Shown one piece after another: positions 3,509-64,000 of a stretch of DNA of 64,000 nt. This DNA comes from Gnetum montanum. Taxonomy: Eukaryota > Plantae > Gnetophyta. The stretch lies in assembly GCA_015680685.1 (NCBI GenBank), contig MNCI01002152.1, positions 249,344 to 313,343 on the forward strand. The letters run 5' to 3'. Within the stretch, counting starts at the first letter, position 1, and every line of letters starts with the position of its first letter. The notes beneath the pieces were generated by a model. It searched no databases, was not told the origin of the DNA, and saw only the letters and a list, made by a program, of their open reading frames with translations. Made by a program: the position numbers and the translations under genes.

Positions 3509-3597
3509 TGTCAATTAGGCTTCGTATATGCACCCACTATATTTACACTGCCTTGTTTATGGAGTCCCATCAATATAAGACAAAAATACTATATATA
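3509..3597 (+). promoter_or_regulatory. Putative internal promoter of ORF2 in A (phased palindrome remnants plus TATA)
   Basis: TATATATA 3590-3597 preceded by decayed CGTCGACG-like 8-mers at 3509, 3523, 3540, 3554 and 3568; donor AG|GTATGC at 3745 and acceptor TTGCAG directly before ATG 4055. Confidence 0.5.
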
Positions 3598-6958: not shown

Positions 6959-7195
6959 CATTTTCCAGCAACTTCAGAATTTTTGGTAGGGTGGAGAATC
7001 AATTGCTATCAAGGTGTTCAATTTTTTCTCTGAATACCACAATTTTGTAATTTATTTTTCTGTACACTTGGGCACTTGGTATGTCGATAGAGTCAGTGTT
7101 TGTGTAGATGTGTCTTGTTAATTGTGCTGTAATAACTTCATACCTTCCAAATTGTAATAAACTCAAGGAAAAGTTTCCATGTAGTCATGGAGGTA

Positions 7196-8127
7196 TGATG
7201 AAGTGTTCAGTTGATATGTTAATTGGGACACATTAATGGAGCCTCGTTGATGCAGCCACGATGACGTGACCCCATCAACATATCCATCTATGCATTAACA
7301 TGATCCCGTTAAGGCAGAGTCAGACTCTTACTATAAATATGCGCACACCCATAGAATTTATGGCATATTTTGAGTTAATTGTAGTGAAGTTCTTACAGTT
7401 TTTTTTGTACAAGTTAGAATATTTTCCAAGTGCCCACAGTAGGAGTGAGAAGGATGTACAAATCTTTATTCGAGCGCTAATGTACTTGAGCCCATTGGCA
7501 TGAGCGACAATAAAGATGAGCTTTTTGAACATTCCTTGTAGCATTTGGACTTAATTACTTAAGCATTAAAACACTTTAACATTTTAACAATTACTTAAGC
7601 ATTAAAACACTTTAACATTTTAACATTTTAAGCATTCCAAAGTCCTTTATTATTATTACTTTATGGTTATAGCCCTTTTCATAGTTTATAAGAACCATAG
7701 GCATGACCATCTTGAACATATACCTGACACTTGGCAACCTAGTGATGCTTAACATTTGGTAACCCAGTAGTGGTTAACGTATGCTTAGGGTGTGCACGAA
7801 AGATGGGATTAGATGCTTATGCTAGGGAGAGTTAAGCGATAGAGTAGAATAGTCACAAAATTATACCACTTTCCATTTCCTACACTAGAAGAATCAGACC
7901 TTAAAAGATAAAAAGAAAACTAATAAAAATCATTTACCTCAATCTCACTCAACCATCACTTTAGAATGTCACAAGTGAGGTTGGGAAGACAATGACCATT
8001 CTAATTAAGGTTTTGCTAGCTAGAATTTTGTGTACTTAAGTGTTTGTAGTCTACAGAATTTGACTGAGTCATGCATGCACGCTCGTGATTTGTATGGTTG
8101 GGCATAGGGGTACCTCACCTCTCATCA
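7196..8127 (+). repeat. 3' LTR of element A
   Basis: TGATG...CTCATCA termini, preceded by PPT; TATAAATA ~7333; homologous to the other Athila-like LTRs. Confidence 0.85.
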
Positions 8128-14925: not shown

Positions 14926-14934
14926 AAGATTCCC

Positions 14935-19652: not shown

Positions 19653-20545
19653 TGATGAGTAGCCTATATCCCCTACACCCAACCATATGAATCATAAGTG
19701 TTCACTAGTAATCTAGTCAAATTTTGTGGACTTAGTTCCTAATTTTGCTTATAGTCTTAAACTATGAAGCAAGGGGTTTTATGATTGTTGGCTTCCTAAC
19801 TTACACTTGTCTTATCAGTATGTATGGTTAAATGTGAGTTAGGGCTCATGATCATTTTTATAAGTATTTTTATATACTTTCTTATCTTAATAGGTAAATA
19901 GTTTAATGAAGAATTAACACTTAATTATCTAACTACTTAGCTAATATAATAACTAGCTATCCTAATGTAAAGTAATTGTTCCCACTTATCGTACACATCC
20001 TAAACTAGTATCAATGCTACTGGGTTACCAAGTGGTTATTATTGGGCATAACAAATGACCATTGTTGGGATTACCAAGCACAACTAGTCATGCTCGAAGT
20101 GGTCATACTTATGATTTTATGACTAATTATATTAATTAATTGAAATAATGAATGTCAATTGCATTTAAAACAAAGTGTAGGTAGGAAAGAGTAAACTAAT
20201 CCAAGTGCTACAATGAATATCATAAATATTGACTTTACTGTCATTCATGCTAATGTATTCAAGTACATGGTATTCAAATAAAGCACTGTACAACATCTTT
20301 AATTCATAGTGCAGGCACTTAGAGGAAAAATATTCTAGCTCTAGAGAAATCAAACTATAAGGGCTTCATTATGCTATGAATTTAAGATGTCATAAATGCA
20401 GGTGACAACCACATTTATATAGGCTTTTCTTGCATCAACATTAATGCATCTACATCAATGCATCTAACCATGCATCAATGGGGATACATCAATGAGGTTA
20501 TGCCAATGCATGCCCATCTATATAAAGTGAGAGAAAGCTCTATCA
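19653..20545 (-). repeat. Athila-like solo LTR
   Basis: Reverse complement of the A/B LTR family (TGATGAG at 19653, CTATCA at 20545); flanks GGTAA/GGTCC match only 3/5. Confidence 0.75.
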
Positions 20546-22158
20546 GGTCCATCATTTCCACATATCTAGCAAGTGGACACATGTCATTACTAATAGGAGG
20601 AGAGGATGACTGGGCACAACAAATCTTAGGGAATGTTGATCATTCCAAGTCATGCTAGAAATTGGTGAAGGAGTCACAGTGGTGATTATGTAGCACCAAG
20701 ATGTAGTAGGAGCAACTAAAGTTATAACAAACCATATCAAAGAATCATTAAAGTTCCTATTGTGTCATCGGTTGATATTTTTGGAGCAAGAGATGCTCAA
20801 ATGCTTGCTGGTACCCCAATGAATCCTATGGAACATGAGGATATACTGGATAGACTATCACATAGACTATTGCAGATGGGTGAAGTCATGCAAAACCTTT
20901 TTAATATCCTAAGTCATATCATTGTAGTATAGTCTAATTTAATTTCGACAAAGGAAAATTTGGTTATGGAATAAACCAAAGTTGAACATGCTAAAAATGA
21001 AGTACAAAGGCTACAAGAAGAGTTAGTAGTTCTAAGATTTGAAAAGAGAGAGCATGCACAGTTCATATTGCTAGACCAACTTGATCAGCTTAGAACTAAT
21101 CACATGAGGTATTTGATTGGCTAGAACATGTAGATGGAGAAGGAGAATGAAAAGGAAATGTGGAATGCATTTTTCACAAAAGCATGAACATTTGCACATG
21201 TTAAAGCTCTCATCGCCTTATAAGAAGAAAACAAAAAGCTCATTGTTGAAAATACCAAGTTGACAAATGTAGAAAAGTAGAAAAATATTCTTAAGGAAAA
21301 AATTCACCAACTAAGAGAACAACTCATGAGAGTCAACTAGGATATGATTTTCTTGGGTAGAGAAAATAATAATTGCTCAATTAAGGAAATATTCACCATT
21401 CATAAAAAATCTATAATCGAAATAAGCATATGGCAGAATAAGGACAAGAAACATGAGCAATTGAAGGAGCATTTCAGAGATAGGATGGGCATTTATAAGA
21501 AAATAAATGAAAAATAAATCTAGATGGAAAAGGCCAAAATCAATTCCCTCTTTGCCTAAAATCTAGATTGGCAATTCATCTTGGATAGTCTTGCCCATGT
21601 CCACTAGGCCAAGGTGAAGAATAAAACTTGTAGATAGAGGAGTTGACAAAATACATGGGGTTAATGAACCTTTGCTATGCTAACTTAGCCATGTCAATAG
21701 CAAGTTGGCCTCAGAATGAGCTTGAGTAATAGGTAGCGATAGTTTATGTCATGTACAAGAAGAAGTTTTCCAACAAAAAAGATGCATTACAAAAACTACA
21801 TGTGGAAAACCCCAACATATAAATTATTAAAGCTAGCTACTAGTAGTAAAAGGATGTAGTAGTAAACATAGCATGTTGAATGTTAGATTACCAAGAACTT
21901 AGAAAGACAACTAGAGATTTTGAAGAGAAAAGAAGGTAGTTTGTGGCTTAGTACATGAAGGCCAACAAAATGTTTCCATAGCTACCATGTCCATGGGATG
22001 TACCTACTTCATCCAACATTGTTTAACAAGCATGGATGGTATATGACCGAAGGACAAAAGTAGAGAAGCTTTAGGCACTCCTAAATTGCTATCAATTTCA
22101 AAAGCCTAATGATAAGGGGAAGAAGCTAATGGAAGAGCCTCCACTACCTAGAACATGA
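20546..22158 (+). pseudogene. C-terminal two-thirds of env-like ORF2 (copy F)
   Basis: Coiled-coil region and LPCPWDVPT...AWM motif homologous to A and B; ends EPPLPRT*; PPT-like sequence 22331-22365 follows. Confidence 0.8.
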
Positions 22159-22365
22159 ACTACATTGTGCTACTACAAATTTTGTTTTTTATTTTGTGTT
22201 TTATCATGTTACTATGTTATTTTGTAAAAACACCACTAAAACATTCTAAGTTAGGTAAATAGTTAGTTAGTCATGTTAAGTTGAGTTTACCTCCCAATCT
22301 TGAAGGGGACTCTCTTGTCATTTTACTTTAACTTGAGGACAAGTTTCTAGTTATTTGCAGGGATA

Positions 22366-23243
22366 TAATAAAGTTAAATTTTTGGAGAATACGATATCAC
22401 TGTAATGAGATTGTATTAACAATGTCATAATCCATGTTATGTTATCATTGATGCAATGTCTCAGGATCTATGCAACCCTGTAAATACTGATACTTGGACA
22501 TAAAATCAACAACTTTTCTTTCCAATTCTTAGAGAAACTCTTGCAATTTCTTTTTGTACTTAGCGATAAAGTGAATGCCTACATTATGATGTTTAGTAGT
22601 TGAATGGAATATTTATTTGAGTGAATTATACTTGGATATATTTTATGACAAAAATAAAGATTAAGATTTCTTTCCATCATTGTATCATCCACTTAGTTTT
22701 ATTTGTTTACTTAGCATAATTTTCTTGTTTTCTTAGCTTAATCATTTACATTTTCCAAGAACTTTATTTTACTTGTTCATTACTAAAGTGGAATGAGTAC
22801 CAATGGTTTTGAGCATTAAAGTGTAATCATTTGGTAACCCAGTAGTGGTTTCACTAGACTCTCTCAGTGGTGAATTCACTTGGTAATCCTAGTAATGGTT
22901 ACATGAGTTCAAGGCATGTTTGGTAAGCTAGGAATGGATGCACATTGCTATAGGATATAATATATTTACATTTTTATTTTTTTTAGATTTACCATTTAAA
23001 TTCATTTTCATTACGTTTGTACTTAGAAGTAAAATGAGTCTTACAACATCACATAACATATGCTTGATTGTGAGTTAAAACATACACTTAGACTTCACTA
23101 ACTCAAGGTGAGAAGATGATGATCATGAAGTTATTATCAATAAATAGCATAATTACATTTTCTATCAGTGGATTATGATCTGGTCATGCACTAGCACTCA
23201 TGACTTATATGGTAGAGTGTTGGGATTGCTCCATCACTCATCA
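22366..23243 (+). repeat. Athila-like LTR acting as both 3' LTR of F and 5' LTR of E
   Basis: Preceded by ORF2 and PPT, ends CACTCATCA, immediately followed by a PBS. Confidence 0.8.
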
Positions 23244-37555: not shown

Positions 37556-38457
37556 TGATGAGTAGCTAGGTACCCCTACACTCAACCATATGAATACGAG
37601 AATTCATGCATGATCAAGTCAAACTTTATAGATGGCCTAGTTGTGGTATCTAGATAGTTACATGTTGATTTAGTTCGTTGTCTTCCCACCTAAACTAGTA
37701 TTTTCTTTATCATGTATGGTTTAGTCTAGAGTGAGGTGTATGATGTGGGCCTAAACTAGTGCTACTCCAAGAGGCAATGAAAAATAACTTTATTTCAAGC
37801 TAAGAGGAAGTGGAAGAAGAGAATCTAAGCTAGCCTAAGTGCAATAAGCATCCATCCTTAATCATCTCTACACATCTTGGACCTCATGTACTACTTCTAG
37901 GATTACCAGGCATATATTACTGAAGCACTTCTAGATACGCTACTGGGTTACCAAGTAGTCACACTTAAATGCTCATGATTGAGTCATACTCATTCCACGT
38001 TTAATAATAGGGATAGTAAAGGAAGGTAAAGAAACATTAATTAAGAAAGTAATAAATAACAATAACAATTAAGCAATTAAAACTAAGTGAATGCTACAAT
38101 GATAGAGTAATCTCGATCTTTATTGCTGGTCATGTGCATGTCCAAGTACGTCACACTCAAATAAAAGTTTCGTAGAATTACAATCATCACACTATAGGCA
38201 TGCACTGGGAAAAGAGTTGAGATGAACTAAAAATGAAAAAAAATACTCTACTTCTATATTGCCCCACTTCCTCCCTTCTTGTGCATCCAAAGGTGTATTT
38301 ACAAGCTTACACAGGAATCACGATATTGTGTATCCGATATCGTTATCCAGGCTATGATATCACATACCCAATAATGAGGGTCCAATATCAAGGGTCTGAT
38401 GTCAAGGATCTAATGTCAAGGGTCCAATATCAGCACTTGACAGACCATGATTCATCA
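37556..38457 (-). repeat. 3' LTR of C
   Basis: Direct repeat of 42686-43601; 14-bp repeats ~38320-38432. Confidence 0.92.
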
Positions 38458-38633
38458 TACCCCCATGACTAAATAAAAAATCATCCTCGAGTCAAAGAAA
38501 GTGAGGAAAAAGTTCATCCAATTAAAAATAGGGGATAGGTATGAGATTATTGAATGAACATGGATTGTTTCATGCCATAATTTGGGACTAAACAAAATTT
38601 GGACATAGACACAAAAGATAAAACTTGTGGAAC

Positions 38634-39064
38634 TCATGGGGTTCCCAGTGGTGATGGCTCCTCCATGGATGTCTTTCCTTTGTCTTGCATGCTAGGCTTC
38701 TGAGATTGATATTGTTGAAGAAGCACCTAACATTTCTCCTCTTCTATTCAAGGATTATGAGCCATCCATGTTTATATTCCAATGTTTGATGGAGTCGACA
38801 CTTCCCACACAACAACTACGAGAACACTTGATTATCCTTGACATGCCATGCCACAAATAGTCATTCTTCCTCTTCATAGGATTAGGACCTGACCTCTCCA
38901 CCTTTTACTTAGCTAGATTGTGCAATGATAGGAGTTCCTTGATGGATGATGAATGGTTGTGCCTCCTACTCTTCATGTTTTGCATGAGGTCCTTGGCCTT
39001 TGCCTTCCCCTATGTGTTTAGTTGCACCTTGAGAAGGTCCTTCTTGTCCTCTTTTAGGGGCCAT
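38634..39064 (-). pseudogene. Mini-ORF2 of C (N-terminus fused to C-terminal motif)
   Basis: MAPKRGQEGPSQG...LFVAWHVKDNQVFS.L...WEVSTPSNI..TWMAH...EPSPLGTP*. Confidence 0.7.
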
Positions 39065-42685: not shown

Positions 42686-43601
42686 TGATGAGTGGCTAGG
42701 TACCCCTACACTCAATCATACGAATACAAGCATTCATGCATGATCTAGTCGAACTCCACGAATGGGCTAGTTGTGGTATCTAGATAGTTACACGTTGATC
42801 GTAGTTTTCTTTCTTCCCACCTAGACTAGTATTTTCTTTGTCACATATGGTTTAGTCCAAATTGAGGTGTATGATGTGGGCCTAAACTAGTGCTACTCCT
42901 AGAGGCAATGGAAAATAGCTTTGTTTTAAGCTAAGAGGAGTGGGAGAAGAGAATCTAAGCTAGCCTAACTATGATGAGCATCCATCCTTAATCATCCATA
43001 CACATCTTGGACCTTGTGTACTACTTTTAGGATTACCAAGTGTATATTACTTGAGCGCTTCTAAATACACTATTGGGTTACCAAGTAGCCACACTTAAAT
43101 GCTCATGATTAAGTTGTACTCATTCTGCATTTAATAACAAGAATAGTAAAGGAAGGTAAAGAAACATTAATTAAAAAAGAAATAAATAATAATAAGAATT
43201 AATTAATTAAAACTAAGTGAATGCTGCAATGATGGAGTAATCTCAATCTTTATGGTTGGTCATGTCCATGTCCAAGTACGTTGCACTCGAATAAAGGTTT
43301 TGTACAATTACAATCATCACAATGTAGGCATGCACTAGGGAAAGAGTTGAGATGAACTAAAAATGAACAAAAGGAATCTACTTTTATACTAACCTACTTC
43401 CTTCCTTCTTGTGTGCCCAAAGGTGTATTTATAGGCTTACACAGGAATCCCAATATCGTGTATTCGATATCATTATCCAGGCTACGATATCGCATACCCA
43501 ATATTGAGGGTTTGATTTCGAGGGTCTGATATCAAGGGTCCAATGTCAAGGGTCCAATGTCAAGGGTCCGATATCAGCACCTAACAAACCATGATTCATC
43601 A
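42686..43601 (-). repeat. 5' LTR of C
   Basis: TGATGAA...CACTCATCA on the minus strand followed by PBS TTGGTGCCATTGTCGAAGA. Confidence 0.92.
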
Positions 43602-46958: not shown

Positions 46959-47049
46959 TGACATCATAGCTATGATGTTGTTGCCCATGCGATGTTGCAT
47001 CTACAATGACTCATCTGTAACATTGTGCACATAAAAATAGTATATATAT
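46959..47049 (+). promoter_or_regulatory. Putative internal promoter of ORF2 in E
   Basis: CGACGTCG-derived 8-mers at 46959, 46973, 46990, 47004 and 47018, then TATATATA 47041; CTGCAG|ATG at 47597. Confidence 0.55.
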
Positions 47050-47596
47050 GCATAGGAGGTAGCAAAATTTTCCATTCATTCATTTTATAGCAAGAGAAGT
47101 TTTTGTAGTTTTCTCTTTGAGCACTTTCAAGCTAACTTTACAAGGTCATAACTTCATCTACATAGCTTCAATTTTTTAAGTTCTTGAACCTTGTTGATTC
47201 TAGAGTGCTCAACTTAGTCATGGAGGGTATATTGTGAGGTACATTTGGAAACTTGGGCCAAAAATTTTCTAACTCATGGAAGATATTATAAAGGATAAGT
47301 ATAAGAAATTAATAAGAAGATCATCATTAATCAATCAAACCTAAGCTAAAGAACCTAGTTAATTCTCCTAATAAACTATACCAACCATTTTAGGACATAA
47401 TAACAAGGTAATGATAATTATAGGAGGTCTTAATAGTAAAGGATATAATACTAAAAAGGTTTCATTTTGAAAATTTCTCTAACTCTGTAGTTATAATGAG
47501 ATAAGAACTTGATCTAACCAAGAGTACGAGGAAGATGAGGAACTATTATGAATCGATTTAAACACTTTAATAATTTCAAACTCTTGATGACTGCAG

Positions 47597-47934
47597 ATGG
47601 TCTCAAAGAGACTAGCAACTGAAGGATCCTTTTAACATGGAAGAAAAAGACCAAGAGGCCATGAGAGAAGCTAAGAGAGAGAACAAACTCCACAATCATA
47701 AGATGCAAAGTAGGAAGCCCAATCATTTAGCATTCATCAACAAACTCCCACCATTGAGTACTTAGCCAAAGGAAAGGTAGAATCATTGCCTATACTTGAA
47801 CAATGGTAGTGGCTCACATTGTCTCTAGAATGCCTTCAAGCCATACAAGGAAAATCTCTAATGTCCATGGTCTTCATGGAATTGAACTTTGGTCCTTTTA
47901 TGGAGTTTTCTCTAGAAGCTATGAAGACACAACT
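47597..47934 (+). pseudogene. ORF2 of E, N-terminal part (continues at 63583-64000)
   Basis: MVSKRL...MVFMELNFGPFMEFSLEAMKTQL; resumes after B as QASPLWPTLSNSGEWYLGETYQFW. Confidence 0.8.
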
Positions 47935-48729
47935 TGATATTTCATCATCGATGGCCTATGTTGATGCATATGTGTCAATGTGGTGTCTTAATCTACCTAT
48001 ATAAATGTTCATACCCATCACATTTATGACATCATTAAATCCATAAATTATGGAAGTTCTTATAGTTTATTTCTCAATAGTTAGAATATTTTTTTTAGTT
48101 CCTGTAGTAGGAGTCAAAAAGTATATGGATCCTTATTCAAGCATTAATGTACTTGGACACTTCAATGTGATGGCAATAAAGATGAACTTCTTGAAATACC
48201 TTGCAACATTTGGAAATAGCATAATGTTTACTTTAATGCACTTTATTATTCATGAAATTTACTTCAATGCTCATTGGTTAATTAAATAAGACTAATTAAT
48301 TCACATAAGTACAACCAAATTGAACATAACTTTAATACTTGGTAATCCTAGCAGTGACTCACACTTGATAACCTAGCAGCAATATAATGTGTTCAAGATG
48401 TGTACAGTAGGTGGGACTGGATGCTTATGTCAGGAAATAGGTTAAGAAATTAGATAGTTTATTAAATTAATTAATACTTAATTACTTTATTTTACACTTA
48501 GGGTAACATAGAAAAAAATATAAACTTATAAAAATCATGTGCCTTAGTTACACTTAACCATACGCTTGTACTTATATAAGTGAAACCAAGAAGACAATGA
48601 TCATATCCCTAGATTCACTATCCTAGATAATGTGCATTTAGAGAGCTAAATTCTATGGAATTTGATTGGATTATGCATGAACACTTGTAATTCATATGTT
48701 TGGGTGTAGGGTATACTTGTCACTCATCA
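47935..48729 (+). repeat. 5' LTR of B
   Basis: Direct repeat of 62748-63577. Confidence 0.9.
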
Positions 48730-50610
48730 TTGGCATTGTTGCTAGGGACTTTAGTTAGCTACATGCACTACCTAGGAAGTTTGTAAAATTATTAAATGAT
48801 GTTTTAATGAATCATAAGGCCACATCATTGAGATAAATAATAATAACATACACAAACTATTTTCCTTAAGAACTAACATGGCTTCTTCTCATAGGAAAGA
48901 CTCTCTGCCATTGTTTGTAAGTGGATACAATTAATAATAAGAAGAAGGTCATAAGACACTAGTGTCCCAATAGTTCAAAGTGGTATATACTCATCTAGAT
49001 GAGTATACTTTGGACTTCACCTTCATCCTACATTAAGATGAGTAGCTACAGTGGAGGAACATGGAAGACAACATCATGTTGTCTCTCGACCAATTTGTTC
49101 CTACAATGCTCTTAAACAATCTTATCAAGTTGGGAATTACTAGACTTAATTCTAAATACGAAGTGCAAGATCATGCCTATTGGGATTATCATCCCACAGA
49201 GGCATAGAAAAAGAAAGATCAATAGATGGAGGCCCAATAAAGACCACAAAAGGTAAAAAGGGTCCTACCCAATTTTTATTGTAGACACATAAAGAAGGGA
49301 AGGACTTCCTTTTAGGGAGGTCTTAATACATTGATTCTCATCCTCTATTTGATGAGGAGGCCCTTAAACAGCAGATACAGTCAGTTGTAACCAAGCTTGG
49401 TTTTTCAAATAATGGATCTCATAATTAGAGAGCCTCGAAAGGGGGTAGCTAGGGTAGAAACGAGAATAAGCACTAGGATAAGGAAAAACATGGTAACTAT
49501 GGTAGGAACTAGAGAAGATAAAGTAGCATACATCATACTAGTGGTGGCTTCCCTTCCTCTTTTCCTTCTTCATCCTTATTGTTTTCCTCCTCCAACTCCA
49601 ATTGGAGCTACAGAGACAAGAAGGACCATGATGGAGGTGAGTGATGGGATTGGGATGATTGCTGATCCCATTGTAATGATAGAGACAATGGGAATGAGTA
49701 GTGAAGAGATGATTAGAACAAAGAAAGAAGGGACAATAGGGATCATCATAGGCCTCATGGTTATGATAGGGGCCACCTTGACTGCTATCAATATGATGGG
49801 CCCTTGCTGGTAACGAGAAACTTGTGGAACATTGTAGAGGTCGTTAGGATCCCAACAAGGCATGTGAAAGATAGATATGTTAAATGGTTGGATATGAATA
49901 ATATCCTTAAATTTAAAAGGGGATATAATTCATATCCACAAAATAATTTGTAAGAATTTCATGATTCTTGTGCCTTATAGAATATGGAATATGAATGGAA
50001 AAAATTGAAGCTATTTTTAGGACACTTGTCAAAGAAGTTAAAAGTTGGCACTAGTCCTTGGAACTAGAATCAATTTGAAGGTGGAGTAAAATGCTTAAAA
50101 TATTTAATGATAAGTACCAAAAGTACTCTCAAGTGTCCAAAGGAAAATCCAAGGATGAAAATAGAAAACTCATGAATCCTTGGATGTGGCCATGGACAAG
50201 TACTACTCTTTGTTATACCGATCCTAGGCCATGACTATTCTCAAAAGGACTAGACACAACCATATCATTGATGGGCTTCAAACTAAAACAAGAATAACTC
50301 TTAGGATCTATGCCTAAGGGAGGCTTTCAGAGTTAAGGACCCATAAGATCCAAAGGCTAATTGAGTAAGTGGCTAAAGAAAAAGGTTAGCTAAAAAAGAG
50401 AGAAAATGTAGAAGAGTATAATAAAGGCCCCTTCCTCTACAAAAGGGAGGTTTGTTTCTATGACAATGAGGGGGAGACATCACTTGATGAATTTGTATAA
50501 GAAAAAAATTTACCATTACAAAAATATGTATATGAAATATCAACTAAAGTTGATAAAATGTTAGACTTCTTGGATGAAAAATTTCAAACTACTCTAAGAA
50601 TTGCTTAGGA

Positions 50611-53600
50611 GAACACCCCATCCTAGCTAGGGCATGATGATGCTTAGGATAAAGTAATCTTACAATTAAAACATGATAACTAAAAACCAATGATGTGTAG
50701 AATACATAATATTAAGAAAGGTGAAACTGCATAGAAATTTCATACCACACCAGTAACTAAACATATATTTCAATTTATAAAACTACATGTCTCTACATAA
50801 ATCAAATTATGCACTACTTTGCTAAAATACAAAAACACATAAACATCATCATCGTATATATAAGAGTACAAATAGTTTCATATAATGATACATAGTCCAT
50901 ACTATTGTGCATGAAAATATACATTAATTAAGCATTGAATATTTTCCCCTGCTCTACTCTTCCTATCTGTGCTTGTTTATGCTCCTGCACCTGTAACACC
51001 CTGCCCTAGCTAAGGTAAGGTGATGCCAAGGATCAAGTAATCTTAGCATGGAAACATGATAACTAAAACCAATAATGCATAGAATATATTATAATAAGAA
51101 AGGTCAAATGGTATAGAACTTTCCTGCCACACCAAAAACTCAACATACATAAAGCAAACTATACACTACTCTGCTAAAATACAAAAACACATAAACCTCA
51201 TCATCGTATATAGAAGAGTATAGAGACTTTCATGCAAGGATATCTAGTCCACAATACTATACATAAAAATACACATCAACCTAGCACTAAAGATTTTCCC
51301 CTTCTCTACCCTTCCTCCCCATGCTTGTCTAGGCTCTTACACCTTTCACCTATAATGAAATAAAGTTAGTACATAACTGAATGGAAAGCCTTTACACTTC
51401 CCCTACTAGATGGTTGACAAATTCTACACTAGAGGAGAGGAGTGGGGTACAAGGCAACTTGCAACAATTGTTAGTCTTTTGCGTTCTAAAAACAACACAC
51501 ACCATATCACCCATAATTTTAACATACTACCATACAATCATAGATAATTCCATGGTCTAACATCATCTATCTTGCCCATGTCATTATATCCATGATATAC
51601 TATTAAACAATCCATGATCCACACAATCATAATCCAATCAGAATACATATGATCAATGATATGACTCACAAACTAATACTATCACATACATAGCCCATGT
51701 GGTGGTTAGTGGATCCACACTCAATGTAGCATGTGAAACATTGCCATGAGTACTCATAACAACCACTCCCTATAGGTCTTTTATTGGTCTTTTATTTATC
51801 CAACCAGTGCTAGGATTCGTCAACCTATGACCTACAACCACTATCCTTCTGGAGAATTGGTGATAGGGATGATCACACCTACACTCTCTCACTCTCACGA
51901 TGAGGCCTAAGATAGGAGCCTCACTAATGCATCACAGTGAGGATCAATCCATACTACCTCCAAGGTGTCTTATCACTAATCAGTCCACACCCTCACGTTA
52001 GCACCACCCCTAACAGTTACAATCATTCCATGAAAACAATACCATGATGCAACAGAACAACATGAAGACCTCGATATGACAAAATAATACCATATTTCTC
52101 AAAGACACATACTTCTATATAGATGATCAGTATAGTAACCTTCAAAATGAGATATTCCCAAAGAAAAACTAATTCCACGATTATAAAGTACTTTCCAAAA
52201 TGATCCCAATGACACTAATTTTACCTAAATTAGACTCCTGGAAGCAATGTTATGTATGTTTAAGGTTTGATTAATAAAATAATATTTAATTACCACCAAA
52301 AAGGATTGGAATGCCTAAATATGCTCATGCCCTAATAGATCCCAAAAATAGCATATTCCAATCATATGAGTCTAATGAACACCACATATCCTATGCTACA
52401 AGTCCAAATCATCCCCTATATTGCATATATATTAATCCATAATTCATAACCAAAATTAGACAATTTTGGGAAAATAGAAAAAATAACATGTCCAAGCTCA
52501 ATCCCTAAGCTATCTGCCCCACATGCCCACATTGCATAATCATAGATACTAATCCAACAAAAAAATACAGGGAAAAGGTAAATACAACCCACCAATTAAA
52601 ATTGTCAGGGTAGAAAGGACAAAACAAATAGAAAATCCTAAAAAATCTAGTAGGACTCCCTTTTTCTTCCAACAAGTTCTACACCCACGTCGATATGATC
52701 ACAGTAATCCCAAATCCAAGTTTAGAGAGAGTAAAAATCATCCACAAGTTTCAGAATCTAGAAAAAAGAAGATAGCAAAAAGAAAAATGGAGAAAATAGA
52801 GTCCTATGTATTTTTGTTTTTGCGAATAAGAAAAAAATAGAACCGAAAATCCAATTCTCTCACAAGTAGTGGTGAGGTGGTGCCATGAAAAAGATGAAAC
52901 ATAAAACATATACTTTATGTTAAATAATATAATGATGCACTTTTCTCATGTGACATGAGGTTACTTTTTGTTTTTTCATTTGCATTATTTATTTATTTTT
53001 ATTTTTTTATGAACGAACAATTTTCATAAGCTAATATATTTTTCTCCTCTACAATTAATATTGTAAACTTTAAACCTACGTAATAAACACATCGGGACTT
53101 CAAATAAAAATTCATTTGAACCTATGAGATCCTTATCATACGCTCTACACACTCACATGCCAAAACCACACCTAAACATCATGCAATATAGTGCTATAGT
53201 ACAAATGTTAAAATACTAAAATTGCACATAAAACATAAAAATATACCAGATAGATGCTCTTATACCCTAATCCAACACCCCTGCTAGCAACATCACCTAT
53301 CTAACACATCACATAGGGCTATTGTACATAATCACGTTAGTTAAGCATGTAAAGACATCATAATCATAATATAAAGACAAAGCTTCATAATATATAAAAT
53401 ACATTAACTCATCCTTGAAAACCTATGGGGACTCCACATGTCATGTATAAATCATAAACAAATGACCATACCTACTATCTCTAGATGGGATTTAACAACA
53501 CCTTTCACTTGAAATTAAATAAAGTTAATACAGAGTCGAGTGGTAAGCCTTTACACTTCCCTTGCTAAATGGTTGATAAGTGTTGTACTAGAGGAGAGGA

Positions 53601-55738
53601 GTGGAGTACAAGGCAACCTACAACGACTATTAGTTGTATGCATGCTCAAAACAAGACACACACCACATTGCCCATAATGCTAACATAATCATTATTGAAT
53701 ATTATAGATGGCTATGATACAATCACAAATAAAGCCATGATCTAACATGATCTATCATGCCCATGTCATCATACCCACGATATACCATTAAATAGTTCAT
53801 GATCCACATAATCATAATCCAATCCTAACACATATTATCAACAATATGACTCGCAAACTAATACTATCATATACATAGCATATGTGATCACTAGCATATT
53901 TGCACTCAGTGTAGCATGTAAAAAATTGTCATGAGTACTCATAATAGCCATTTCTTGCAAGTCTTTTATTTATCCAACTAGTGCTAGGGTCCATCAACTT
54001 GTGACCGTAACTACTAGCCTTTTGGAGGACTAGTGATAGGAATGAATACACCTATTTGATGTACTAGCCATAGGGATGAACACACCTTTGCTCTCCTACT
54101 CTCAAGATGAGGCCTGAAATAGGAGCCTCATTGATGCATCATAGTGGGGGTTAATTCATGCTACCTCCAGGGTGCCTCATCACCAACTAGTCCACACCCT
54201 CATGCTAGCACCACCCACTAACGATCATCACAAGCATCATCACAAATACATGTACACATTCCAGTTACCTTAATAGCACAATATGACAAAACAATACCAT
54301 ATTTCTCAAACTACATGTACTTCCACATAAATGACTACTATAATAACCTTTAAAATGATATATGCCCAAAGAGAAAAAAAATCTTAAAATTAGAAAGTAC
54401 TTTCCAAAATGATACCAATGACAATTTTACCTAGACCCTTGGAAGCAAAGTTATGCACATTTAAAGTTTGATTAATAAAATAATATTTAATTACTAATAG
54501 GAAGGATTGGAACTCCCAAAAAATGCTCATGTCCTAATAAGCCCAAAAATATCATATTCCAATCATACCAGTCTCATCAACATCAGATATCATATTCTAC
54601 AAGTCCACATCATATAATACATCACACATATATTACTATATAATTTGTAACCAAAATTGGACAATTTAAAAAAATAGGCAAAATAACATGTTCAAGCTTA
54701 ATCTTTGAGCTATCTACCCTAGATTCCCACATCACATAATCATATACACCAAGAATATAGGAAAAAGGTAAAGACAACTCACCAATTAAAATTTTTAAGG
54801 TAGAAAAATTGAAATAAGCAAAAAACCATTAAAATTCTAGTAGGACTCCATATTGCTTCAAACAAGTTTTGCACTAATGTAGATATGATCTCAACAATCC
54901 CAAATCTAGGTTCAAAGTAAGCAAAAACCATTCACAAAGCTTAGAATTTAGAAAAATGTGGAACAAAAGAAGAGATAAGAAAGAAAAATGAAAGAATAGG
55001 CTCCTGTGCATTTCTATGGGTAAGAACACATCCATAGGAAAAAAATAAGAAACCCAAAATCCAATTTCTATGGGTAAGAAATGGTGAGGCAGTGGTACAA
55101 AAAATAAATAAACATATAACCTATACTTTTTTTTTACTATATGCTTTGTATTAAAAAAAAACTAATGATGCACTTTCTTTCTCATGTGACATGAGTTCAC
55201 TTTTAAATTTTTTCCTTTTTAATTTATTATTATTATTTTTAAATGAACTATTTTCATAAGCTATATTTATTTTTTCCTCTACAACTAATGTTGTGAACTT
55301 TACTCATGTGTAATAAACACACTAGGACTCCAAATCAAAATCCATTTGAACCTACGAGATCCTTATTATATGCTCTACACATTCACATGATAAAACCACA
55401 CCTAAAAATCACAAAACATAGTGTTATAGTACAAATTCATAAATACCAAAATCACACATAAAGCATAAAGACATACTAGATAAGTGCTCTTGTACCCCAG
55501 TCCAACATGCTTGCTAGCAACACCATCTATCTAACACATCACACAATGCTAGTATACATAGTCACGTTAGCTAAGCATGTAAAAACATCATAATCATAAC
55601 ATAAAGACGAAGCCTCATAACATACAAAATACCTTTACATTACATTAACTCATCCTTGTCAACCCATTGGGACTTCACCTGTAATGTATAAATCATAAGC
55701 ATATTACCATGCCTAATGTCTCTAGATGGGATGTAACA
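50611..55738 (-). mobile_element. Tekay-family solo LTR (outer), inserted in B gag
   Basis: Reverse complement of 14948-17668 in two pieces (50611-50991, 53498-55738); flanks TAGGA/AAGGA; left terminus eroded. Confidence 0.85.
50992..53497 (-). mobile_element. Tekay-family solo LTR (inner), nested in the outer copy
   Basis: TGTAACA...TTTAACA termini; TSD GCACC/ACACC; outer LTR sequence resumes across it. Confidence 0.88.
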
Positions 55739-57716
55739 AAGGAGGTAGTGAATGTGATAGAAAGAAGAAAAAAGAAGTTGAATGTGCCCATCATAAGGGT
55801 AAGGACAAAATTATTGTAGTAGAAAAGGTTGGGGATTCTAAAATAGATGATGATAGGTGTGACATCTGTTAGTATGAACATCCTAAGGGATGTTGCCCAA
55901 TTGTGTCACACTTGCAAGAATCCAAGGTGTGTGCATTGAATCATAGATTGGCCAAATGGCAAGCACCTAGAAGGTTTTCTTACACCCCCCAAGGAAACTA
56001 TTGGTAGTTCCACCAATAATCCTAATATTCGATTGGAGCACCACCTCAACCTCATGAATAGTCTCAATAGTGGCAACACTCATAGTTCTGAGGGATGCCA
56101 CCACCAAGGTAGCAATATCCTTTCCACCAACTAGATCCATACGAGTGCTACATTCAATAGCCCATCTTACCATGTTATTCTTCTAGTCACACTTCTAACA
56201 CCATTTCTACCTTTTTAAATATTATAGAGCACCATATCCAAGGGGAGAGTCCCCATTTCCTTATCACCCTTCTTATCCTTCCACTTTTGCGCCTATGTCC
56301 TCAACACCTTTGCCACCTAGTTCACCTATGTAAGGTGAGATCCTAGCACAGCCATAGTAGACACATGTTGTAAGGCCTATAAACATACAACAAACTTCTT
56401 AGTTGAGTGGCTCTAAATAAAGTCCTTGTAAGACATCATTCTTTAAAACCAAAAATTCCCCAAAGTCCTCACAAACATCCATGGCTATGAACCCTACTTC
56501 TACATCATCTGTAGTATCCATTGAGCCTCCTTCAAAACAAAGCACTTTTCAATCGCACACTGCTATGTTGACCAATGTGGTTACTATTTAGATAAAGGCT
56601 AGCTATCTTCCCAAGAAGAGATCTCATCCTAGGAGTCCCCTTATCTATTTGTAGATTGCTAATGAAAAACCTTGTAAAGGTCTTTTGGACTCAAGTGTTG
56701 GAGTCAATTTGATTTCATCGGAGATGTACAAAGCCTAAAACCTTCCTCTACTAAAAGACAATAATATAAGGTTGGAATTGGTAGACCAACTCATAATAGT
56801 TTATTTGGGATTGATTGAGAACATTATGAGCATCATTTGTGGGTGGTCTTATCTTACTAATTTCTTGGTGATTAACGTAAAGAATAGTAGGTGGGGCTTC
56901 CCTATTATCATGAGAAGGGGATGGCTAAGTACTATAGATGCATGGTTGGGGATAAGAGATCTCTCCATGGAAATTTATAGGAAGAATGAATTAGGTAAAA
57001 TAGAGAAGAAGAAAGTTCCATGCATCATGTATAGTGACACAAAGTGCCATTGTATGCACAAACTATGAACCATAAAGAGCATATCACTTTTGACATGTAG
57101 ATAGTGTGCTAATGTCACAATGATTCAAAGGTTCCTATATGCAGTAGCCACTAAGTAACAGGACACTCATTGGTTGAAAACTAAAAGGAAGGATGAACAA
57201 GAAATATGCATGGAACTAGCTGAGAGCCTCAAAAATTCTTGTCTAGAAAGCATGGCTCAAGTGAGGCTAGTTTCTGACCACCATATGCAAGGTGCAAAAA
57301 ATATGATCGTTTTCAACTATTCATCATCTATGGTGGCCCAATTTGTACAACCTAGTATGATAAATAGGTTTGGTATGCCATGTGCACAAATTTCTAATAA
57401 CAAAACACATTTAACAAATAAAGCATGCAAGGCACATACTACATAATGTTATGACCTAGGTTTAGGAAGGAAAAACTATAACAAAATAATAAGGTGCCCT
57501 ACTTAAACCCTACACATATGCCTCAATGCACAAACTTTTGAACATTATGGAAGGAGCCTTTCATTAATCATAAGATATTGCCACTGGGGGCATGCTAATA
57601 TACCAGCCTGATAGCACACATAAAAGAATTATGACCAATTCCTTGCAATGTAAGCCTTTCCTTGAAACCCCTTGATAGGCTTGCAAGCTCAATCCTTCAG
57701 ATATTTCCCTTTCAAC

Positions 57717-57732: not shown

Positions 57733-59175
57733 TGGCCATCCATGTTAGGATCTTATAAAGTGGCTTCTTAGTTTTTAACGTTTTTTGTTTTATACCATTT
57801 TTAGCATGTTTTCCATTTTCTTGAGTCTTTTTCAAATTTTCTATATTCTACCTTATTTTGGTTATTTGAATTTTTCTTATGTTTCTATGCTTTTTCTTTA
57901 TTTCCATCAGGACTTGGTACAAGCTACAGCTACTATTGATGGTGGTTTAAAGTTTATCAATTATTTGAGTGTAAATGGCTGGATTTCATTTTGGAATTAT
58001 AATGTTCACTAATGGAACATTGATTCTTTTCATGTTAACAGGTAGTGAGTCCATTTCATCCATCACTCCAATCAAGTCTATGGTGCTTCCTCATTTTGGA
58101 AATCTAAGGTCCCTTTTTAATAAGAACTTATAATGAACTGGTGACCTTTGTACTTTCCAAGCTTGGGATGAATTAAGTGGATTGAAAAGGGTGTGACTTC
58201 AAAGGGATTTTTCACTTTTGTGCTTACCTACCGTCTAAGTTACATGAGTGTTTCCATGGATTTCTCATCACTCCACTATTGACTAATAATAAGAAGCAAA
58301 GTCTTTGCATGGTGTGGTTTCCATTCAAGAAAAAAAAAACAAAGAAAAAGAATGGAAATTCAAAGCACACCCCTTAGACATAATAACAAGCTACAAGTAT
58401 TAGTTATGATGCTAGAAAGACATGTTATCCATGCCTAAAGGTACCCCTCTATCTAAGGTCCTCTTCACTTCCTACTTCTCTTTTATTCTCCTTTAGGAAT
58501 GGTGTGTGGTCTATGGGGATGTTCTTATTTCTTGGAGGGTGGCATGATCTCAAGTATCAATGTGAAGTCACTAGAAGTAGATGGTATTAACTTGGACTAA
58601 GCAAGGTGGTCCACTGGTCATATTTAATCACATCTTCCACAAGGGACTTCATGTGACCACCATGGGAAACTCTATTTCATTCTCTTATCCACTAATTCTT
58701 TCCATACACCATCTCACTACCTATTTTTATGATTGTTTCAATGGTTTCATTAGTAAAAAATTAACATTCTTTGATGAATTCTTTGGTGATTTGATCTTTA
58801 ATGATCCACAACCATTAATAATCCTTAGGACCCATGGACTTCTTGGTTTGAGGGCATGCAAGGGCATTAAGAGCATAAGCCTACTATGAGGAGGATCCAC
58901 TTGCATACTCCTTGGTTGGGATGGTTAAGTTCTGTATCCCTTAGACATTTTTCTCTCAAATCCTATGCATTCCACATCAATTTCATCTAGTTTTGAACTC
59001 CTTAACCAATAAAAGTTGACTCAAATATCCTTTTTTTTTTTGCATAGTCTAAACCCTCTTTAAAAATTTTGTAGTATTCTAGGTTTTTTTTTTGGCTTTC
59101 TTTGGACTCCAATTTCATTAAAAAAATCCTTACTTTTACTTAGTTTCTAAATTGATTTTTTTTTTCTTTTAGCTA

Positions 59176-59250
59176 TGTTGATGCATCCTTATCAATGCAG
59201 TGCAATGCGTTGACACATCCTCATCAATGTAGCATAAAAGGCCTATAAAT
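59176..59250 (+). promoter_or_regulatory. Putative internal promoter of ORF2 in B
   Basis: Two dyads TGTTGATG-CATCCT-TATCAATG and CGTTGACA-CATCCT-CATCAATG, then TATAAAT 59244. Confidence 0.6.
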
Positions 59251-59698
59251 GGCAGCAAGGACTTAGCTAATTTCTCACTATTCTCATTCAACACCAAAGG
59301 AATTTTTTAGCTTTTGGAGCCTAGAGCCTTCCTAAGCCCATAACTTTTGAGCTACTTATTTGATTCACTCCGTTCTTCAATTCTATAGCTATCAAGGGTC
59401 AACTCTACATTGTGAGGGCCACAAATCTTAGGCTTTTATAGAAAATTTTTCAAAACTTTTCTAACTCCCATAAGGTTTAACTAAAAAAATAATATTAAAT
59501 AGCACTAATCCACTTTAGTTAAACCTCATAAACAAACTCTAGTAGCTATCAAAGTAAAATAATAAGAAAATAATATTCAAATATTAAACCAACCATAATC
59601 ACAACATTATCCTAAGTGTAATGAATCAAAGGAGACAAGGTGTCAAGTGTTCTAAGTTACACATCAATTACTAATCCTTGGTCATGTTGTGATTACAA

Positions 59699-62507
59699 AT
59701 GACACCAAGACACAAAAGAGTGTAGGAGGGAGGACTATCCTAAATGAGGAATAAGTGGTCTTGAGGAGGAAGAGGCTAATAGTAGCAGTAACCCCAAGAG
59801 GAAGTAATAGAAACACATGAAATGGGACCTCTTTAAGAGGAGCTTGAAGTGAAGTCTATTTGAGGCCTAGGTTGGGACCCAACCTAGAAGTCACTTTGAC
59901 AAAGGCCTGCCTAAAGAAAATCAATTCCAAGGAGGTTAAAGGTTCAATTCTTCAAGAACTTACCTTTGGTCCTTTCTTGGACTTAGCACAAAAGAGGTCA
60001 TAACGCAACTTCAAAGTTCTTCCATGTGGCTGATCCTTACTTTTAGCAGGGAATGGCAGATGGGGGAAACATAACTCTTCTAGAACAATAGGTAGGCCAA
60101 CACCACTATGAAAATAAAGGACATCAGTGTGTCATACTCTATGGAGGCCATCATAGAGGTCCTCAGGTTTCTAGATACTAGAGTAATCTTGGGGAAAATC
60201 TCAATGTAGACCCTAAAGTAAAGAAATAATGGATCCAATGGTGCTATGGAATGAACCATAATGAGTATGGTGTACTCACCAAGGTAAAAAGGGCATAATT
60301 TGAAATTATGACCTATCATCTTAATCCAATGATAATTCCATGTAAATTCACATTCTTTTCTACCTGTGCATGTGCTACTCTAAGCAGGAAATTCCCTATC
60401 AACATCCTGTAGCTCATCTTTCTTGAAATGGAGAAGTGCTTCAAAGAGAATAGCATGGGATAAAGACACTCCTATTTTCATGCCTAATCCAAAAATTATG
60501 TAAAGGGGGAGGAATAGACTACTATGTCAATGATATGTTGCATCATTCTCCTATCACATCCTAGAAGGATATGATGAAAAACAAAGTAGCCACCAAGTTA
60601 CAAGAAGAGGAGTAGACACCACCACTACCCACTTAAGAACAAGTAAATTTGGAGGCTTGTGCTACCATTGAGTGAACATACAAGCTCCATGAGCAACTCA
60701 TATAGTAGTAGTAGATAGCATAGTGTGATGGGAACCCATTAGTTTATTAGCCAACTATGAGCCATTTGAATAAGGTAACCAAAACCATTAGATGACCGGA
60801 GGGAACTACAACATTGTTTTCTACCCAAAGGATATAGGTGCACACAAGGTTGATTCCTAGCACTTGGGAAGTAATAGTATCCCTCTTAGAATAATAATAA
60901 TTCCTAGAAATTTTTGGGAACACCACCACTTTCTTGATGCACTTAGAGGAGGGAAAGGAGGTAATTGTCTTGGTGATGTAGCACCAAGGGCAGGAGACAA
61001 CCATGAAGATGGTAGCTAACTATGTGGTAGAAGCATTGAACACTCTTATAGCCTCTATGCCTAATATTTCTCAACTTAGGAACATGTAAAAATTTGCAGG
61101 AGTAGTAAGTGGAAAGCTAAGTGTAGCCTAGCACAAGGAGGTGTTGGATCAATTAGTGAAAATTGAGCAACCACTTCTAGAGATCTTTGATCTCCTAGAT
61201 ACAATCACTACAATATAGTCAAAGTTGCTAAAATCTTGGGCAAGCTCATCATTTTCAATGCCCAACTTGAGACATCTACATCTAAGAATTAATAATTGGC
61301 TATCCAAGTTATAGAGTTGAGAGCCAAACTAGCTAATCCCATCATGCTTAGCTAGGCCTTAAAAAGAGATGAAGATTTTTTACAACTTCAATACAAACAT
61401 CAAGACACTGAGCATGTAAAGGAGATGGAAAAATTTGATCAATCCTTAGTATAAGCCATGAACTACAACATCAGAAAGGATTTTTTAAAAGTTTGCAAGG
61501 AGAATCTAGTTTTAACCTAAGATAATCATTGCTTGCAAAATATTAAGGCACAAAAAGAACAAATGATGGAATTTGTGTAACAATAATGAGAGCATCTTGC
61601 CAAGGTGAATATGAATTTGAGGAGGTTGGCTACTAAGAATCGAAATCTCTTAATGGAGGAGGTTTTTTCCATTTGCTAGAAAATAGTAATTGAGGTAGCC
61701 ACCTAGAAGAACAGAGCCCTAAAATTTGAATGGGTGAAAAATCATTACAAGGACCAAGTTGGACTCTTCAAGGATGTGAATGAAAAAGAGATTTAATTGG
61801 TGAAAGCAAAAGTCAATGAGGCCCTCTAGTAACTTCAACAAGGAGGTGATGTGTGGTAGCCCATTTTTGATGGACACAATGTGTACAACAAAGATAAAAT
61901 CTACCTCAAGGAGTTGTAGATCAAGGAGATGAATGAGTACCTGGAGTTAGCCAATCTTTGGTATGAAAACTTGGTAATGCTGACTACTAAATTGTCAAGC
62001 TTTGAACTTGACTTGCAAGTGGCCAGCTCTTACCTCTTGTACAAGGCATAGTTCAAGCACCATAAGAAAATAAAGAAAAAGATAAAAATAGCTAATGCAA
62101 AGCTTGAAGTCTTCTGCATGCACTTCACACATCAATGATCAATCATGGAGAACTTTTCCAAGAGGATGAATGACTACTAAGAGCTACAAAACACTATTAA
62201 GATGTTTGACATTAAATGAAAACAATTTGCTACCTAGTTTTTCAACATCAAGGAGTTGTTTCCAACCATGCCCTATCTATGGGATGTTCCCATACTAGCT
62301 TACATTAGTGATGCCGCATGGACCATGTATGATTCCCAAAGAAAGGAGGAGAAGATGAAAGAAATATTGGATACTTTCTATCTTCCACTAGATATTGCAG
62401 TTGTAGTAGAATAGCCACAACCACCTCAGCCTTAACCACTGCATGCACTAGAAGTAGGGGAAGATCCTTCAATACCTTAGGAGTCTTCACCTAATGGGAC
62501 TATTTGA
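59699..62507 (+). pseudogene. Athila env-like ORF2 of B
   Basis: Collinear with 4055-6958 (LQELTFGPFL, MWLILTFSREWQMGET, LLFSCLIQKLC, YLWDVP). Confidence 0.82.
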
Positions 62508-62747
62508 TCTTATTATCATCTTTGATCATTAGAGGAGTTCTAGCCATCAATTTTTGTAAAGGTACTAAATTTTATTTTCATGAATACCCATTTTTTATAA
62601 TCATTGTCAATCTATATACTTGGACACTTAGCATTAGTTTTGGAGTTAGTTAGTTAGTCAATGGCTCAATACCTTCCAATATTTTGTAAGAAGCTTGATC
62701 CTTATTTTGTTCACTTGAGGATAAGTTTTTAGTTAGTTGTGGAGGCA

Positions 62748-63577
62748 TGATGAATCATCACCAATGGGATGTGTTGATAGGCATGCTTCAACGCATTCTC
62801 ATCAATGCATGATTTGATGCATCAATGTGGTGTTTGAGTATACCTATATAAATGCATGTACCCATCACATTTATGGCATCATTAAGTCCATTGCTTAGGG
62901 AAGTTCTTATAGTTTGTTTTCTCAACAATTAGAATATTTTCTAAGTACCCGCAATAAGAGTGAATAAGTGTATAGATCCTTATTCGAGCATTGATGTACC
63001 TGGACACTTTGGTGTGACGAGAATAAAGACCAACTTCTTGAAATACCTTGTAGCATTTAGAGATAGCTTAATGTTTACTTTAATGCACTTTTTTATTCAT
63101 GTAATTTACTTCAATGCCCATTAGTTAATCAAATAAGATTAATTAATTGAAATAAGTATAACCACCTCAAACATAATGTTAATGCTTGTTAATTCTAGCA
63201 GTGACTCACACTTGGTAACCTAGCAACATTATAATGCATTCAAGATGTGTATAGTAGGTGGGGCTAGATGTTTATGTTTAGAAATAGCTTAAGGCATTAC
63301 ATAGTTTATTAGATTAATTAATAATTAATTACTTTGTTTTAAACTTAGGGTAAAATAGATAAAAAATATAAACTTATATAAATCATGTGTCTTAGTTACA
63401 CTTAACCATATAGTTGTACTTATACAAGTGAAACTAAGAAAACAATGATTGTGTGCCTAGATTCACTATCTTAGATAATGTACATTTAGAGAGCTAAAGT
63501 CTATAGAATTTGACCAGATTGTGTGTGAACACTTGTAATTCATATGATTGGGCATAGGATATACTCGTTTCTCATCA
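62748..63577 (+). repeat. 3' LTR of B
   Basis: PPT-like sequence 62712-62747; TGATG...CTCATCA termini. Confidence 0.92.
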
Positions 63578-63582
63578 CAACT

Positions 63583-64000
63583 CCAAGCATCTCCCCTATG
63601 GCCTACCTTATCAAATAGTGGTGAATGGTATTTAGGAGAAACCTACCAATTTTGGTAGAAAAAAAGTAGATGCTACAGTGAAAATTAAAGAGTCTCTATG
63701 TCATACTTAGTAGAGGAAATTGCTAAGGCCCTCAACATTCCAAATGAAGGAGCCAATGTGACACAAATTTCAACCAATTTAGACACCAATGCCAAGAGAT
63801 TATGGTTGCAAATGAAATACAACAAAGAAGACAAAGACTTGAGTGAACTCTCAATTAAAGAAAATATTTACTTCAATATTGGGACCTATCAATTATTTTC
63901 AACTAAAAGGCTTTAAAAAATTTCAACATATGTGACTAGAGGAAGTGCAATTTTAATTGGAAAATTTAATGTCAACATCATCCATTTGTTCTTCCTTGAA
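63583..64000 (+). pseudogene. Continuation of ORF2 of E
   Basis: SGEWYLGETYQFW motif; ORF 63698-63916 is homologous to A ~4520-4750. Confidence 0.8.

Follow-up and report, generated by a model that had tools for sequence, protein, structure and literature searches.

Arrays of CpG palindromes precede the TATA boxes of both the long terminal repeat (LTR) promoter and the predicted promoter of the env-like second open reading frame (ORF2) in Athila-type retrotransposons (elements A to E) nested in a 64-kb stretch of the Gnetum montanum genome (contig MNCI01002152.1, hereafter the window). In the window, the palindromic units are phased, stand at a fixed distance from the TATA box, descend from CpG at their outer positions and change motif between ORF2 clades, and the same design is found in Athila elements of other plants. 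The motif shared by the LTR and the ORF2 promoter is therefore a real feature and, it appears, general in Athila. We give about even chances to an explanation in which the ORF2 protein would bind these arrays as an oligomer and activate, or protect from silencing, both promoters.

Phased palindromes upstream of the LTR promoter and a predicted ORF2 promoter

The window is a nest of old plant LTR retrotransposons and has lost CpG strongly, the observed/expected ratio lying mostly between 0.04 and 0.35. An initial interpretation made from the DNA letters (the sequence-only reading) had listed 8-mers at mostly 14-bp spacing upstream of the TATA boxes and had explained them by CG decay of one palindrome. 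Every one of these 8-mers is present where it had been placed, and resampling and control patterns bear out that the 14-bp phasing goes far beyond chance. Allowing each CG to be any pyrimidine-purine (YR) dinucleotide, type-1 sites (YR-T-YR-A-YR) form six exact pairs at 14 bp from 90 sites in the window and type-2 sites (YR-A-YR-T-YR) ten from 107, compared with a mean of about 0.1 and a maximum of 2 in 200 local order-2 Markov resamples; the remaining 14 YR-x-YR-y-YR control patterns gave no pair at 14 bp. Similarly, a chain scan of the 64 kb, using link lengths (13 and 17-20 bp) picked after the arrays had been seen, recovered nine chains scoring at least 6, all nine at LTR or ORF2 promoters, where the null gave 0.15 and 0.07 chains per 64 kb. 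The array copies are related to each other, and these counts thus represent few independent events. Further arrays (38321-38432 and 47946-47980) and additional units of the B LTR (at 62772 and 62820) were found beyond those listed initially.

The proposed decay from CG holds for the outer positions of the units, but not for their centre. The outer positions are still CG in 18 of 112 cases (16%) versus 1.6-2.4% of YR steps window-wide, about 7-10 times the background, and contigs carrying other copies of the family vary between T/C, G/A, C/T and A/G at array sites, matching the prediction of CpG decay. The centre is a degenerate YR rather than a decayed CG: it is CG in 1 of 56 units, often TA, and never CG in the type-2 units read. 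The corrected motifs are CG-T-YR-A-CG (type 1) and CG-A-YR-T-CG (type 2), with the frame CG-N4-CG common to both. Bases 3 and 6 are T..A in 24 of 26 type-1 units and A..T in 17 of 19 type-2 units, counts that omit one twin of each LTR pair, and the own motif type scores above the other in all ten promoter regions, if weakly so in the ORF2 promoter of A. This last array, rightly called weaker, scores 5, under the chain cut-off of 6. Two details of the sequence-only reading do not survive: the supposed other-type unit at 22446 is likely a chance match, as the type-2 register runs on through 22440 and 22454, and the CATCCT-like spacer taken as a trait of B has its counterpart in the type-2 promoter of E (CATCTA/CATCTG). 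The two LTRs of B carry unequal arrays, with three scored units (47935-47980) versus four (62748-62827) and a difference of about 35 bp, which indicates that the B array shrank or was converted after insertion.

Distance to the TATA box and the predicted internal promoter

In all seven LTRs, whichever their type, 24 bp separate the start of the last unit from the TATA box, and the last steps of the array are 20 and then 14 bp in five of these seven; in the predicted ORF2 promoters, the last unit lies 21-22 bp before the TATA box (three of three). Because the unit-to-TATA distance is fixed while bases 3 and 6 swap, the two types are positionally equivalent and represent one array with these two bases exchanged.

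Downstream, the spacing of TATA box, splice donor and acceptor is kept in A, E and an Athila locus from outside the window (L054), the donor being unclear in B; indeed, L054 repeats the array, TATA, donor, intron and ATG geometry of the window. The acceptor ahead of the ORF2 ATG would fit either splicing from a full-length RNA or an internal promoter followed by an intron in the 5' untranslated region (5'-UTR). Among RNA reads matching 56000-64000, no ORF2-promoter start site was called and the strand signals derive from other copies; these reads were mostly less than 90% alike, with 97-99% continuing into unlike sequence, and are thus uninformative either way. Two RNA reads match the ORF2-promoter array of B and from there pass to the TATA box of the LTR (59199 to 62843); they likely come from another copy whose LTR array resembles the ORF2 array of B. 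The window lends no support to the idea that the ORF2 promoter stems from a recent wholesale copying of the LTR promoter: downstream of the TATA box, LTR and ORF2 promoters score 19-44 against each other, versus 35-180 among LTRs. The LTR and ORF2 promoters may have an old common origin.

ORF2 relatedness and motif type

The ORF2 of A and B are 43-53% identical to each other, those of E or D are 30-38% identical to A or B, and the C remnant matches D only. The motif type tracks this relatedness, as had been proposed, with type 1 in A/B and type 2 in C/D/E, although within the window this co-segregation amounts to a single contrast. ORF2 had also been described as retained: the ORF2 regions are indeed present, but every copy in the window is interrupted by many stops, and no open reading frame of 160 codons is left anywhere in the 64 kb.

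Pfam searches at E up to 10 on 11 ORF2 pieces returned Transposase_32 in 10 of 11, plus one noise match only. The A protein reaches Transposase_32 (PF20167) at E=6.4e-5 and 23 bits, under the 45-bit cut-off, and a profile comparison aligns it with intact members found in other plants (probability 42%, E=2.6e-4, 145 columns), which is supportive but weak. The helix-hairpin-helix pattern of Transposase_32 may resemble that of the PMD. No strong hydrophobic segment was seen in five ORF2 pieces (KD19 at most 1.68). Searches for homologs of the window ORF2 gave 0 of 600, 0 of 1917 and 0 of 141 candidates, and one 103-aa fragment (P0001) was the sole match among 1.84 billion representatives. There was no match among PDB sequences, and nothing related to the window ORF2 was found in viral contigs, three loci from one search being left out.

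The same design in other Athila families

Metagenome contigs were scanned with a motif for the Athila polypurine tract (PPT), giving at least 125 stretches, of which 119 loci were used, many redundant and a few not from plants. The L044 locus, whose ORF2 is intact (Transposase_32 E 9e-54), carries eight copies of CGCCWGGCG in its LTR and 11 upstream of ORF2, with 5 and 12 in L037 and 6 and 9 in L026, loci of the same family. L067 belongs to the same LTR cluster as L044 and its ORF2 is 46-53% identical; it bears another motif in both places, CGCTSARCG, with five copies in one and three (not significant) in the other. A third family motif, TCGC-N4-GCGA, is present seven times upstream of the L054 ORF2 and three times in the LTR of the related L070. 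The motifs of these three families were picked by eye. In a blind test, the leading palindrome class of each LTR was chosen and its enrichment upstream of ORF2 measured; own-family z values were 4.2, 4.9 and 5.0 (L044, L037 and L054/L070), while other families gave at most 1.5.

In 11 of 46 LTRs among the loci listed (47 LTRs, one dropped as too short), a palindrome class exceeded the highest shuffled value in 99 or more of 100 trials. Palindrome arrays were seen in none of the eight loci listed for an LTR family without ORF2 (integrase end about 1.1 kb before the PPT, no ORF2 match), nor in L075, from a second ORF2-less family; many further loci beyond these two families are also array-negative. 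Pair spacing in the other Athila families is 20-22 bp. Of the shared motif and phase first noted, it is thus the shared motif that recurs in the Athila of other plants, while the 14-bp phase is specific to the family in the window. L044 and L037 also have extra motif copies inside the predicted 5'-UTR intron, no more than about 350 bp before the start codon of ORF2, a likeness to VANC21, which has motifs in introns. Three more Athila-like LTRs (L010, L028 and L066) show palindrome classes of their own (CGCGCG-type, TCGC-N5-GCGA).

A possible self-binding mechanism and its alternatives

Base-exact spacing despite divergent spacers, together with the invariant TATA distance, argues for a protein on DNA, and the existence of five motif classes, changing as ORF2 changes and missing where it is missing, argues for a reader encoded by the element. 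In such a mechanism, which is plausible and unproven, the ORF2 protein would bind the arrays before both TATA boxes and activate, or shield from silencing, both its own gene and the genomic RNA, in a positive feedback; ORF2 would be expressed from the internal promoter with its 5'-UTR intron. The N-terminal Transposase_32 domain would be the DNA-binding part, and the C-terminal coiled coil would oligomerise and set the family spacing, 14 bp here and 20-22 bp elsewhere. At 10.5 bp per turn, a 14-bp step places each site about 120 degrees further round the helix and 20-22 bp keeps sites on one face, so that the oligomer geometry would differ by family. As the specificity of ORF2 drifts, the two arrays would stay matched through tandem slippage and exchange, and copies deficient in ORF2, C among them, would rely on the protein in trans. 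Element C (37556-43601) has mostly lost ORF2 and has no ORF2 promoter array, yet carries the longest LTR arrays (nine and eight units), as expected, in this one case, for an element using ORF2 in trans.

Several observations weigh against this mechanism. LTR and ORF2-upstream arrays share spacers in young elements (29 of 34 bases in L070/L054; 30 of 36, inverted, in L053/L067), and a motif match alone is therefore no proof of a co-evolving binder. The step from matching arrays to such a binder, as taken in the sequence-only reading, keeps the backing of positions, co-segregation and generality, but exchange alone could match the arrays. The LTR of L054 itself has no motif copy, nor has the internal region of L053; L065 carries an ORF2 fragment and no LTR array was seen in it; and two regions of the window likewise gave scores for motif d, which had been defined visually. 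The blind scan misses L067 and, working without phase information, cannot separate the two window types, the ORF2 promoter of E giving z 2.6 for a type-1-like class. Clades are contrasted within a host in only two cases, with one more family besides, and labels are shared among kin. AlphaFold2 models of ORF2, built from shallow alignments (pLDDT 35.2 and 35.0), are too poor for fold comparison, and a fold search with the second model found no match at E 0.001, its best Z of 3.3 being meaningless at that quality. Finally, according to PMC7197481, the ATHILA ORF2 mRNA of Arabidopsis arises by splicing of the full-length RNA.

Exchange between the two array sites is likely. For B, the spacers shared in the window favour the element's own LTR; A gives a tie, and E fails this comparison. 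In L067/L053 and L054/L070, the array upstream of ORF2 and that of the LTR can be aligned, spacers included, when one is inverted, which suggests exchange or a possible long-range RNA pairing around ORF2.

That host transcription factors bind the arrays, as family enhancers tuned to a host factor or through a loose two-CpG reader, with exchange keeping the sites alike and ORF2 doing something else, seems to us unlikely, even though a fixed TATA distance suits any activator, the two window types have the CG-N4-CG frame in common and the two arrays have spacers in common. The five motif classes are unlike in their internal gaps and in spacing, and sister subfamilies whose LTRs are closely related carry two of these classes. 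A centre that is never CG among the type-2 units read rules out the ACGT core of bZIP-type sites; the ORF2-less families, moreover, have no arrays. From work on Sireviruses, subfamily variation in U3 repeats has been discussed as host adaptation (PMC4728375), whereas Bousios et al. (2010; PMC2829016) did not find one factor common to the Sirevirus motifs.

We consider it rather improbable that the arrays act through properties of the nucleic acid itself, either as CpG-island-like promoter chromatin or as hairpins and long-range pairing of the genomic RNA that supply small-RNA silencing or escape it, with concerted evolution producing the family specificity. Sirevirus palindromes are treated as hairpins and hotspots of small interfering RNA (siRNA) (Bousios et al., 2016; PMC4728375), the inverted alignments between LTR and ORF2-upstream arrays would suit such pairing, and RNA duplexes between the own-family LTR and ORF2-upstream arrays are better than shuffles (z -2.6 to -3.3), which cross-family pairs are not. 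Nevertheless, shared palindromes pair automatically, and this explanation accounts neither for the base-exact 14-bp spacing, kept with divergent spacers in A, nor for the 24-bp TATA distance across types. That the arrays are neutral tandem repeats, or match a degenerate pattern by chance in DNA decayed at CpG, is already largely refuted and extremely improbable: the patterns are indeed degenerate, with about 100 exact sites each, the array of C is a recent tandem expansion, and the copies in general are not independent, but the empty control patterns, the confinement of all strong chains to promoters, the CpG enrichment and the intact versions in young elements elsewhere speak against it.

Relation to known systems

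Sireviruses provide the closest layout: each element has CpG palindromes of its own, clustered ahead of the TATA box in the LTR and again upstream of its env-like gene, and an internal promoter has been proposed (Bousios et al., 2010; PMC2829016). They differ in being Ty1/copia elements with a CGG-CCG core, a signature absent from the window motifs, whereas the window holds LTR elements with Athila-type landmarks, gag (PF03732) and ORF2. The accessible text on Sireviruses reports no fixed phasing or env-like co-evolution, and proposes host factors and siRNA hairpins rather than self-binding. No report of shared, phased arrays in the LTR and ORF2 promoter of Athila was found in a literature search that covered few subscription papers and no supplements or figures, which may include Athila examples or the MAIL2 motif sequence. 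The novelty claimed for Athila env-like ORFs is thus narrowed, the two-site palindrome layout having been published for Sireviruses in 2010, and the Athila arrays are new as a variant of it.

The VANC system of VANDAL transposons, whose motifs were defined by Hosaka et al. (2017; PMC5735166), also has dense, family-specific, non-coding motif arrays, in introns too, evolving by tandem repetition alongside an element-encoded accessory protein. VANDALs are Mutator DNA transposons and their motifs are non-palindromic and in one orientation, whereas the window elements show the anatomy of LTR retrotransposons and not that of a Mutator-like DNA transposon. For VANC, binding and demethylation are proven; here binding is predicted from sequence, and any kinship of ORF2 with DUF1985 and the PMD is tentative. 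VANC has been linked to the PMD fold (PMC13547354; bioRxiv 10.1101/2024.09.27.615353), and coiled-coil oligomerisation is predicted for both VANC and the Athila domain (PMC13547354). The PMD proteins MAIN, MAIL1 and MAIL2 target promoter motifs, one of them palindromic, and oppose silencing (bioRxiv 10.1101/2024.09.27.615353); unlike ORF2, they belong to another Pfam family, and the MAIL proteins are host genes. In sunflower, an Athila Transposase_32 ORF is predicted to be nuclear (PMC11728184), and clade-specific LTR hypomethylation has been reported for an Athila clade. The foamy virus Tas system similarly combines the LTR promoter with an internal promoter, from which an accessory gene is expressed whose product acts back on that promoter (PMC5210030), but in an animal retrovirus, and the feedback in the window elements is a prediction. 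The antisense ORFs of Retand/Tat elements (TRP28; PMC11963269) are likewise Gypsy accessory ORFs proposed as DNA-binding transcription regulators; they belong to another Pfam family, and TRP28 has no identified cognate motif.

For about 25 years it has been an open question what plant env-like ORFs do. PMC11963269, PMC11728184 and PMC12844716 speculate that extra ORFs have regulatory roles, and a VANC-like action of such ORFs has been raised as a possibility in PMC12844716 and PMC11963269. As a tentative and possible, if doubtful, generalization, the Athila ORF2 would be not an envelope but a family-specific, PMD/VANC-like, DNA-binding anti-silencing activator, with cognate sites readable from the shared arrays, giving a co-evolving lock-and-key feedback loop that Sirevirus env-like genes may parallel. 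Were this so, a lineage that ranks among the most abundant plant retrotransposons would possess its own sequence-specific counter-silencing switch. Such a switch would help to account for bursts of particular families, for LTR hypomethylation confined to particular clades and for the fact that elements which have lost pol still keep ORF2. The arrays assign each Athila ORF2 a predicted cognate site, making cross-family specificity directly testable.

Anatomy of the window elements

The features of the elements are collected in Table 1. The marks of the Athila lineage are motifs next to the primer-binding site (PBS) and PPT, TG...CA LTRs and a 5-bp target-site duplication: decayed PBS-like matches lie at 23242, 42687 and 48728 and PPT-like matches at 22330 and 62712, and CAACT is duplicated around B.

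Table 1. Features of elements A to E and of an isolated LTR in the window.
Feature	Position	Strand	Remarks
Element A predicted ORF2 promoter	3509..3596	+	5 weak type-1 units (steps 14,17,14,14), TATA 3589
Element A predicted 5'-UTR intron	donor ~3745, acceptor immediately 5' of ATG	+	
Element A ORF2, broken	4055..6960	+	N-terminal Transposase_32-like domain; long E/K/Q/R-rich C-terminus, likely coiled coil
Element A 3' LTR	7196..8127	+	type-1 array 7217-7314 (7 units), TATA 7331
Isolated type-1 LTR	19653..20554	-	no matching target-site duplication; array 20439-20522, TATA 20422 (minus strand)
Element D ORF2 C-terminal remnant	21143..22098	+	followed by PPT-like motif at 22330
LTR common to D (3') and E (5')	22364..23243	+	type-2 array 22392-22461, decayed TATA 22478, PBS-like motif after
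Element C 3' LTR	37556..38457	-	type-2 array 38321-38432 (8 units)
Element C ORF2 remnant, internal deletion	38590..39064	-	no ORF2 promoter array found upstream
Element C 5' LTR	42686..43601	-	type-2 array 43451-43576 (9 units, tandem-expanded spacer), TATA 43434
Element E predicted ORF2 promoter	46959..47050	+	5 type-2 units (steps 14,17,14,14; 4 exact), TATA 47040
Element E ORF2 start	47597..47934	+	interrupted by B insertion
Element B	47935-63577	+	LTRs 85% identical, CAACT target-site duplication, inserted in ORF2 of E
Element B 5' LTR	47935..48729	+	type-1 array 47946-47980, TATA 47997, CAACT outside, PBS-like motif after
Element B gag and protease-like remnants	49741..57050	+	nested insertion ~50612-55739
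Element B predicted ORF2 promoter	59176..59250	+	4 type-1 units (steps 14,18,14), TATA 59243
Element B ORF2, broken	59699..62500	+	43-53% identical to ORF2 of A
Element B 3' LTR	62748..63577	+	type-1 array 62772-62827, TATA 62844, PPT-like motif 62712
Element E ORF2, continuation downstream of B	63578..64000	+	

The LTR at 22364 had been assigned to E; it does carry a type-2 array, but it is common to D and E, because an ORF2 remnant and a PPT-like motif precede it and a PBS-like motif follows. This single LTR doubling as D 3' and E 5' LTR (21143-23260) represents a tandem or recombined arrangement. Element C is inverted inside E and carries Retrotrans_gag (PF03732). B and E have the order gag, protease-like region, about 2 kb of non-coding DNA and ORF2, with no reverse transcriptase, RNase H or integrase seen in either; no reverse transcriptase was seen in C, and A is truncated. 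The protease-like region of B and E, so called from its motif, gave no match in the Pfam search. The B region or part of it is present in nine sequencing-run rows under five organism labels (four at a share >0.2); the B family is therefore older than the split of those species, or widespread among them.

Upstream, A is cut off by an inverted fragment (~1500-3050, minus strand) that we take, from its motifs, to be a Tat-like RNase H-integrase, near which lies a 72-bp tandem repeat (1258-1409). Poly-G runs (3762-3786), a 48-bp duplication around an N (5286-5381) and an N gap (36430-36506) look like assembly artefacts. A second family, with LTR-like repeats of about 2.2 kb, occurs in tandem inside the gag of B (51339-55739) and beside the 3' LTR of A (8125-17671).

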